Below, in pieces: positions 54,362-55,426 of a stretch of 64,000 nucleotides of DNA. The DNA comes from an uncultured Mycoplasma sp. Its GTDB lineage: Bacteria; Bacillota_I; Bacilli_A; RF39; UBA660. The number at the start of each line of letters is the position of its first letter. Within the stretch, counting starts at the first letter, position 1. The notes under the pieces are model-generated. The model was not told where the DNA came from, made no database searches, and saw only the letters and a program-made list of their open reading frames with translations. Where the stretch lies: NCBI GenBank assembly GCA_947642635.1, contig CANRTI010000001.1:75252-139251 (forward strand), given 5' to 3'. A program made the translations under genes and the position numbers.

Positions 54362-55426
54362 TTATTGTTTTCTTTGGTTATTACCTTGAGAAATATTTGG
54401 ATTATATTCTTCAATACTAGAATAATTTAAGTCATCTTGCTTTTGACGAGCAATAACCATTTCTAATAAATGCAGTAAAATTCTTTCTTGTTTATCATAT
54501 TTACTAGTAGTAAAGTTCTCACCTGCTTTTCTCTTTCGTTCTATAAATGCTAATCTCTCTTGTCTATTAAATGCTAAATCACTTTTAATAATTATGATAA
54601 GGGATGAAATGTCAGTAGCTCTTTTATCTAAATTTGAAATATACTCTATTGTTTGAAAATCTATTTCAAGTTCATTTTGTTTAAAAACTTTAGCTATTAA
54701 ATATTTAAGCATTCCTAAAACAGTACTTGTTATAATACATTCTTCATTAATATATTTCAAACCATTAGCGCCATAAATCATTTTAAGAATATTTAGCTCT
54801 TTAATAGTCCAAAAACTTCTTGTGGCATACGGGATTTTTTTCATTGCATTAGCAAACACTTCAAGTCGATATTTTCGCATTGCAATTTTATCCTTTACTT
54901 CTTTTTCTATATCTTTTACTTGAGCTAAATTTATTTCTTCTTCATCATGTAATATATCTTTACCAATTTTTACTTGATATAAACGATAATTATTTGGTGG
55001 GATGGAATCAGCAATCCATTCATCTCCTAAAAAGCCATTATTATAATGTCCTTTTAAAGTATCTGTAATAAATGGCTTACGAATATTTAAACCTTTTGGA
55101 TTTATTTCATATATAACGGCAACTGAAGGAATTAAAATTCTTTGATAATTTATTTGTAAAGAATTATCGACAGGAATTCCATCATGATGTAGTGAACCAT
55201 AAGCTGCTAAAACCATTTGAAGATTGTCACTCATATAAACTCCATATTCATTTCCATCAATTACTGTTTTACGACCATGTTGATCAATAATTGGATCATA
55301 ATTAACTTTTAATTCTTGACCAGTAAACTGATAATCTAATAATTTATTATAATCAATTTTTAATCCTCGATATAAAATAGGAGGTTTTCCCTTCATTTTA
55401 AACACTTCTTTCTTACTAATAACCAT
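54362..55426 (-). CDS. 354-aa protein of unrecognised family (candidate retron effector)
   Basis: Clean ORF directly upstream of the putative ncRNA on the same strand. No motif securely assignable. Confidence 0.6.
   Translation of the reverse strand: MVISKKEVFKMKGKPPILYRGLKIDYNKLLDYQFTGQELKVNYDPIIDQHGRKTVIDGNEYGVYMSDNLQMVLAAYGSLHHDGIPVDNSLQINYQRILIPSVAVIYEINPKGLNIRKPFITDTLKGHYNNGFLGDEWIADSIPPNNYRLYQVKIGKDILHDEEEINLAQVKDIEKEVKDKIAMRKYRLEVFANAMKKIPYATRSFWTIKELNILKMIYGANGLKYINEECIITSTVLGMLKYLIAKVFKQNELEIDFQTIEYISNLDKRATDISSLIIIIKSDLAFNRQERLAFIERKRKAGENFTTSKYDKQERILLHLLEMVIARQKQDDLNYSSIEEYNPNISQGNNQRKQ

Follow-up and report, generated by a model that had tools for sequence, protein, structure and literature searches.

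The position of a gene directly beside a retron raises the question of whether it encodes the effector of that retron or belongs to something else. Here, this question is posed by a gene at positions 54362-55426 (minus strand) of a 64,000-nucleotide stretch of DNA, in the following called the window, which derives from an uncultured Mycoplasma sp. (assembly GCA_947642635.1, contig CANRTI010000001.1, positions 75,252 to 139,251). A preliminary description, based on reading the sequence by eye, had placed the product as an orphan protein in the effector position of the retron and had noted a loose resemblance to R-S-E ADP-ribosyltransferases (ARTs) or RES-type toxins acting on nicotinamide adenine dinucleotide (NAD+). 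Our analysis suggests that the gene is a mobile, ART-like conflict gene which is independent of the retron, and that its product is a cytoplasmic two-domain protein of a horizontally mobile, unannotated family. Taken as a whole, we consider this explanation to lie somewhat on the probable side.

The gene and its protein family

The gene and the domains of its product are located as follows.

54362-55426, minus strand: target open reading frame (ORF), 354 amino acids (aa) from the first ATG
54917-55396, minus strand: beta-rich domain at the N-terminus (aa 1-160, with M11 as residue 1); putative ART domain of the pertussis-toxin-like type
54407-54916, minus strand: all-helical domain at the C-terminus (aa 161-330, with M11 as residue 1); conserved in full-length family members

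The ORF list and the sequence confirm the position, strand and length of the ORF as initially described, and the motifs PPILYRGL, GVYMSDN, GDEWIADS and ERLAFIERKRKAGE are all present in it. R20 and S66 had been numbered correctly, while the proposed third active-site residue, E145, was a miscount: the glutamate of GDEW is E136, and residue 145 is an asparagine. Translation probably starts at M11 (position 55396, MENKP...). As all aligned homologues except one begin at the equivalent of this residue, the protein probably comprises 344 rather than 354 aa; the exception is the 97%-identical protein P0001, which shares the 10-residue N-terminal extension of the window protein.

Searches with the target protein against Pfam, NCBIfam, PADLOC, PHROGs and the sequences of the Protein Data Bank (PDB) gave no meaningful match. 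The designation as an orphan is thus appropriate with regard to curated annotation, but not with regard to relatives, which are plentiful. A word-indexed search returned 278 homologues (278-305 across the database searches), and an exhaustive hidden Markov model search of 1.84 billion cluster representatives yielded 208 clusters at 50% identity. The comparison shows that the target gene is a real member of a conserved family without curated annotation, whose hosts are gut Bacilli, Clostridia, Mycoplasmatota and Saccharibacteria, along with one metagenome-assembled genome each of Ignavibacteriales and Muribaculaceae. No match to the family was found in the INPHARED phages, the PLSDB plasmids or IMG/VR.

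Neither a signal peptide nor a transmembrane segment was seen in the target protein or in the long fusion relatives. The closest relatives outside the lineage of the window are about 60% identical (e.g. P0004, P0006 and P0092), and most of them possess an additional acidic C-terminal tail of 60-70 aa with a net charge of -7 to -8, which ends in a basic ...GRRMM motif. Inhibition in cis is one possible role of this tail, which is missing in the window protein and in P0003.

The two domains and the possible likeness of the N-terminal one to ADP-ribosyltransferases

Conservation was counted over 43 relatives with 24-42% identity to the target, with residue numbers following the 354-aa ORF. R20 and a serine or threonine at position 66 occur in all 43 sequences and E136 in 41; E60, G62, Y64, Y76 and P118 are each found in 43/43, G134 in 42/43, and N129 and P143 in 40/43 each. 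The conservation of the motif residues is far above chance. An AlphaFold2 model of the full-length protein, calculated with a 35-sequence alignment as input, reached a predicted local distance difference test score (pLDDT) of 89 and a predicted template modelling score of 0.82, and consists of a beta-rich N-terminal domain and an all-helical C-terminal domain. The N-terminal domain modelled alone reached a pLDDT of 90.8.

When the full-length model was compared with the PDB using Foldseek, the first match was pertussis toxin S1 (E 0.12). With the N-terminal domain as query, ranks 1-11, 13 and 14 were taken by pertussis toxin S1 or EcPltA of Escherichia coli, at E values of 0.04-1.7 and template modelling (TM) scores of 0.29-0.45; the best match had an E value of 0.042, a probability of 0.82 and a TM score of 0.37-0.45. 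No rival fold competes in this search, in which pertussis toxin S1 and EcPltA are the sole coherent matches, and a Foldseek search against viral structures gave no match. The conserved residues R20, S/T66 and E136 follow the order known from ARTs, and their spacing is nearly that of R9, S52 and E129 in pertussis toxin, the S1 sequence of which was verified against the PDB. R20 resides on the first predicted strand (8-14), where LYRG of the target corresponds to VYRY (R9) of the toxin. S/T66, the counterpart of S52, is located at the end of predicted strand 53-56 and is followed by a helix, and the IYEI strand of the family pairs with IYEV of pertussis toxin. E136 opens predicted strand 126-129 and continues into W-I-A-..-I-P-P-.-N, as compared to E-Y-L-A-...-I-P-P-E-N from E129 onwards. 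The best local path of an hhalign comparison also pairs E136 and the following IPP with E129 and IPP of the toxin, at a non-significant probability of 0.5%.

A number of results weigh against this assignment. In the Foldseek search with the N-terminal domain no match had an E value <0.001, the TM scores stayed <0.5 and the root-mean-square deviations were 8-9 Å. Comparison by hhalign with pertussis toxin S1, either alone or in a four-sequence alignment that included unvalidated sequences of cholera toxin and PltA, was non-significant. Neither the window protein nor the family consensus had a match in Pfam, and scans of the individual members at E values up to 10 returned, as the only ART family, ART-PolyVal (PF18760), with an E value of 0.15 in 2/43 members and 13 bits as against a gathering threshold of 31; in P0236, the one member inspected, this match covers the EYGVYMS motif. 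There was no significant ART match in NCBIfam, and a search of the PDB with the family profile gave low-complexity helical matches and no ART. In addition, the classical S-T-S motif is shrunk to one serine or threonine, with aspartate or asparagine at the next positions, and E-x-E is reduced to G-x-E. A search for homologues of pertussis toxin S1, meant to provide a richer ART profile, returned only five near-identical proteins.

The two halves of the initial impression fared differently. The R-S-E reading is faintly but consistently borne out by Foldseek and by the positions of the residues, whereas no search recovered the RES type: Pfam gave no RES match at E values up to 10, no RES, MbcT or ParT structure was among the Foldseek matches, and an Xre-type neighbour, as expected of RES toxin pairs, was not seen at the family loci. 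Judging from the predicted structures, the N-terminal domain is likely to have an ART fold, and the target can probably be added to the ART superfamily as a new member which lacks annotation and is unusual in its architecture and ecology. The domain also occurs as a stand-alone protein of ~210-235 aa in Saccharibacteria or at the C-terminus of larger proteins. In ten long fusion relatives Pfam recognised no domains, and no delivery architecture of polymorphic toxins was seen.

For the C-terminal half, which had been characterised as helical and rich in lysine, glutamate and arginine, the helices at 163-330 are predicted at pLDDT values above 90, while the basic character is only mild (net charge +5, isoelectric point 9.1). 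R184, T307 and D311 are conserved in this domain, for which Foldseek on the full-length model found no specific or informative fold match.

The neighbouring retron and the mobile contexts of the family

Downstream of the target gene, the window carries three elements of a retron.

54288-54298, minus strand: extended -10 promoter of the retron, TGnTATAAT
54100-54283, minus strand: retron non-coding RNA (ncRNA; msr-msd), with a1/a2 inverted repeat arms at 54264-54282 and 54108-54126
53134-54087, minus strand: Ec107-like retron reverse transcriptase (RT), 317 aa, with ATG at 54087 and an AGGAGG ribosome-binding site

The description of the stop codon as separated from the RT only by a putative ncRNA is accurate: from the stop at 54362, the -10 box (54298-54288), the ncRNA (~54283-54100) and the RT (54087-53134) follow in the same orientation, with nothing but the promoter and the ncRNA of the retron in between. 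The RT is recognised by PADLOC as RT_Ec107-like (3.2e-124) and by Pfam as RVT_1, and 55 relatives were found. The ncRNA has a fold z-score of -2.6, conserved hairpins and 9 covarying pairs with compensatory changes (12-15 loci). RT and ncRNA constitute a real and self-contained Ec107-like retron.

To delimit this unit, the 313 nt that precede the RT were aligned for the window and 14 related loci with RT identities of 43-75%. The alignment contains a sharply bounded conserved block, which opens with the -10 promoter (T.TG.TA.AAT, invariant across the 15 loci), continues ~7 nt on with the ncRNA at GCAGTAGTGATTGG and extends to the ribosome-binding site of the RT. No conservation was found upstream of the -10 box and no conserved -35 box. 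With an invariant -10 box and nothing else conserved ahead of it, the retron seems to move as a unit limited to promoter, ncRNA and RT. In 23 RT loci, the core motif of the ncRNA, TARCGAGTCGTTA, is located ~140-150 nt ahead of the RT, and it is also present in two loci of the window's own lineage (L052 and L053); it was seen beside RTs only and in none of the other target-family loci. Among 29 loci with an RT at least 40% identical, no recurrent neighbour protein family was found beyond near-identical strains, which agrees with the description of the Ec107 branch as lacking a specifically associated protein cluster (Mestre et al. 2020, PMC7736814). RTs with 60-75% identity to that of the window are solo, in varied contexts.

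Two observations on close relatives of the retron may be added. At the equivalent sites of L054-L077 the extended -10 box is invariant and lies ~7 nt ahead of the 5' end of the ncRNA. At L076:6001-6965, the coding sequence for a relative of the RT is broken into two ORFs (180 and 129 aa) and probably represents a frameshifted, decaying copy of a solo retron.

The role of the target as the retron's effector, as proposed initially, is not supported by its distribution. Among 116 fetched loci, 57 with a relative of the RT and 61 with a relative of the target, both families occur together in only two, L052 and L053, which represent the lineage of the window (97% identical). None of the 59 other family loci contains the RT or the ncRNA motif, and neither the target gene nor the HD phosphohydrolase gene upstream of it (see below) is found in any of the 55 RT-relative loci. 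The gene thus occurs widely without RT neighbours, which had been named beforehand as an outcome that would speak against an effector. Synteny points in the same direction. In L059, the RT of which is 69% identical, rseP and tRNA-Arg(CCG) are followed by 466 bp (L059:1553-2019) and the retron; in the window, rseP and tRNA-Arg(CCG) are followed by a block of 3.07 kb (54321-57391) and then the retron. By blastn, nucleotide homology to L059 resumes at position 54321, 41 bp past the stop of the target, which therefore sits in an indel beside the retron and outside the retron unit. As far as can be judged from these comparisons, the target gene is an insertion next to a self-contained, effector-less retron and not its demonstrated effector. 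Two points stand against such independence: no terminator was detected between the target gene and the ncRNA, so that read-through is possible, and the co-occurrence statistics are compatible with a recent, lineage-specific coupling to the adjacent retron.

Apart from the target, the 3.07-kb block contains the following genes and fragments, and is bordered by the tRNA gene.

57394-57470, minus strand: tRNA-Arg(CCG), left anchor of the island (ARAGORN and blastn synteny)
56912-57193, minus strand: KilA-N domain fragment (Pfam KilA-N, 2.8e-7), island debris
56612-56884, minus strand: 90-aa ORF, no family found, island debris
55459-56478, minus strand: divergent HD phosphohydrolase of the SAMHD1/dGTPase type, 339 aa; upstream neighbour and possible functional partner

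The composition of the block points to an insertion hotspot linked to the tRNA gene or to a decayed mobile element. An assignment of the 90-aa ORF as a metallo-beta-lactamase fragment was not supported by Pfam. The HD protein matches PDB entry 2hek_A (E 7e-5) with its RFDHSL, LLHD and DRLD motifs aligned, and the usual G-H after HD is replaced by W-T; Pfam, NCBIfam and PADLOC gave no match. This suggests a divergent enzyme resembling deoxynucleoside triphosphatases (dNTPases), possibly encoded by a defence gene. In L021/22 and L109/110, which belong to two other lineages, genes for relatives of the HD protein are located at a distance of 4-7 kb from family members. The neighbour cluster c22, considered as an HD family, turned out to be P-loop kinase-like; the HD relatives are separate genes.

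Elsewhere, the family is found in a variety of settings. In gut metagenomes, family genes are cargo of Tn4451-like mobilisable elements at differing chromosomal sites (L112-L114, L012-L015 and L035); these carrier elements encode TnpV, a ParE toxin, a Mob_Pre relaxase and a large serine recombinase. Other family members reside in small islands with integrase, ASCH, DUF3841 and Q_salvage genes, and also in plain chromosomal settings. The comparison of loci shows that mobilisable transposons and small islands carry the family as cargo. The immediate neighbours differ between subfamilies. A SUKH_6/SMI1_KNR4 immunity-type gene lies directly downstream of the family member in L018 and L020 (E 2e-12), and in eight loci (L006-L011, L023 and L025) the stop codon of a His_Phos_1 histidine phosphatase gene (e.g. 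L006:5376-6011, 211 aa) overlaps the start codon of the family gene. The upstream position is taken by His_Phos_1 in these eight loci and by HD in the window, two phosphohydrolases that are unrelated to each other. Further subfamily-specific neighbours are a 118-aa zinc-ribbon protein, a 147-aa protein and ORFs of 44-48 aa. The latter overlap the stop of family members or lie just upstream of them in two subfamilies (L109:8169-8315 and L012:5816-5950) and are candidates for small, antitoxin-like partners.

Explanations of the locus and comparison with known systems

As cargo of mobile elements with lineage-specific, plausibly neutralising neighbours, the target is a probable toxin or conflict (defence-type) gene, to judge from its contexts. 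While the conservation of the family, its architecture of two domains, its mobility, its independence from RTs and the borders of the retron unit are shown, we infer the chemistry of the target, its toxicity and the roles of its neighbours. The N-terminal domain would represent an ART-like module of the pertussis/cholera-toxin (R-S-E) type, in which, by analogy, R20 would hold the phosphates of NAD+ and S/T66 would give the nicotinamide-ribose pocket its shape. As the catalytic glutamate, E136 would transfer ADP-ribose to a protein or nucleic acid inside the cell and arrest growth. The helical C-terminal domain may select the target or hold the enzyme in check. Lineage-specific small neighbours, such as the SUKH, zinc-ribbon and His_Phos_1 proteins and, in the window, the HD phosphohydrolase, might plausibly neutralise the enzyme. 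In the window, the target and the HD gene probably arrived together when 3 kb were inserted between tRNA-Arg and an Ec107-type retron that was already present, so that the adjacency of gene and retron would reflect clustering in an island and not a tripartite retron system. Speaking against this proposal, there is no universal neighbour across the family loci, which leaves a toxin-antitoxin logic to be deduced, and several loci have no obvious partner at all.

Three other explanations need to be weighed against it. The target might be a newly recruited retron effector, that is, an ART-like toxin which is kept inactive by the complex of RT and multicopy single-stranded DNA (msDNA) until its release upon phage infection. 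Such a role would be in line with the position of the gene directly upstream on the same strand, with an arrangement that is kept in the 97%-identical strain, with the missing terminator and, given that the family swaps its neighbours freely, with a conceivable lineage-specific partner. The window protein also lacks the acidic tail of its closest relatives, but the same is true for P0003, which has no RT nearby. In this single lineage, an effector-less Ec107-type retron would then have captured a pertussis-toxin-like ART, with RT-msDNA replacing the acidic tail or small neighbours, and the locus would represent the first ART-armed retron and an effector capture in progress. However, RT and target families are separate in all loci outside the lineage, close RTs are solo, the retron has its own conserved promoter within a homology block that leaves the target out, and known retron effectors co-evolve with their RTs, while the Ec107 branch has none (PMC7736814). 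We therefore regard both the recruitment and the capture scenario as very unlikely.

A pairing of the target with the HD phosphohydrolase, in which the hydrolase reverses or pre-empts the modification or its product in analogy to DarT-DarG, appears rather unlikely, although somewhat more can be said for it. Only 32-62 bp separate the end of the HD gene from the start of the target, and both genes lie on the same strand and within the same insertion; relatives of HD are found near family members, within 4-7 kb, in two more lineages, and the unrelated His_Phos_1, overlapping the family start codon in eight loci, could fill the role in other lineages by non-homologous replacement. Yet HD is directly adjacent in the lineage of the window only, most family loci have neither phosphohydrolase, dNTPase-type HD enzymes such as the one this protein resembles are a defence gene type on their own, and no chemistry ties ADP-ribosylation to HD or His_Phos_1 hydrolases. 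Finally, the target might not be a toxin-type ART but have another fold or activity, or be an ART-fold modifier of small molecules, i.e. resistance cargo such as Arr, with a benefit unrelated to phage conflict. This would fit the non-significant sequence-based ART tests and marginal Foldseek scores, the many family loci without a candidate antitoxin and the cargo position in Tn4451-like elements, which classically carry resistance genes. Conversely, the structural search offers no competing fold, it is hard to see why else R, S/T and E would be invariant and located on the right strands, some loci have a SUKH immunity-type neighbour, and Arr-type enzymes belong to the H-Y-E and not to the R-S-E branch. 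We thus consider a non-toxin function unlikely.

The preferred explanation, a mobile ART-like conflict gene independent of the retron, would, if the ART reading is true, imply that uncatalogued cytoplasmic enzymes resembling pertussis toxin reside on mobilisable transposons of gut Bacilli, Clostridia and Saccharibacteria and freely exchange their neutralising partners. Such enzymes would then be a candidate for a toxin or defence module of a new kind, and new targets of ADP-ribosylation could be found through them. With regard to retrons, the locus is mainly cautionary, as adjacency to an RT and an ncRNA is insufficient for calling an effector; it provides a clean example of a self-contained Ec107-type unit of promoter, ncRNA and RT which has no more in common with other conflict genes than the tRNA-linked island in which they lie.

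Tripartite retrons with toxic effectors, such as Retron-Sen2 with RcaT and those of types II and III (PMC7736814), similarly have a toxin-like gene on the same strand beside a bona fide ncRNA and RT. In contrast to these, the target neither co-occurs nor co-evolves with the RT clade, the RT belongs to an Ec107-like branch described as having no associated protein (PMC7736814), and the retron of the window has its own promoter and a homology block that excludes the target. ART-PolyVal (PF18760), the ART domain of polyvalent proteins that phages and conjugative elements encode, is the one ART family to surface in the Pfam scans and shares the context of mobile elements; unlike its members, the target family scores far under the gathering threshold and was not found in the phage, plasmid and IMG/VR collections. 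With ART-based toxin-antitoxin or immunity pairs (DarT-DarG, ParT-ParS and polymorphic toxins of the ART type that are paired with SUKH immunity proteins), the target has in common that it is a predicted intracellular ART-like toxin on mobile DNA, that its small neighbours, one of them SUKH, vary by lineage and that an enzymatic neighbour could reverse the modification. It differs from them in that no macrodomain, ARH or NADAR partner and no universal partner was found at the family loci, in that the long forms of the family have no secretion or delivery domain, and in that the R-S-E signature is unlike that of DarT.

The best and sole coherent structural match of the target is the group of pertussis toxin S1, PltA and ArtA (the cholera/pertussis R-S-E group), with which it shares the arginine on strand 1, the serine or threonine at the end of a strand that precedes a helix, the IYEI/IYEV strand and the glutamate in the catalytic position, followed by [WY][IL]A..IPP.N. 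Compared to this group, the target lacks significant sequence or profile similarity, its TM scores are <0.5, a single S/T is left of S-T-S, G-x-E takes the place of [QE]-x-E, and it has an extra invariant glutamate, E60. Moreover, the target is predicted to be cytoplasmic, without a signal peptide or genes for B subunits, and is fused to a helical domain of 170 aa, and its family is carried on mobilisable elements of gut Firmicutes and Saccharibacteria.

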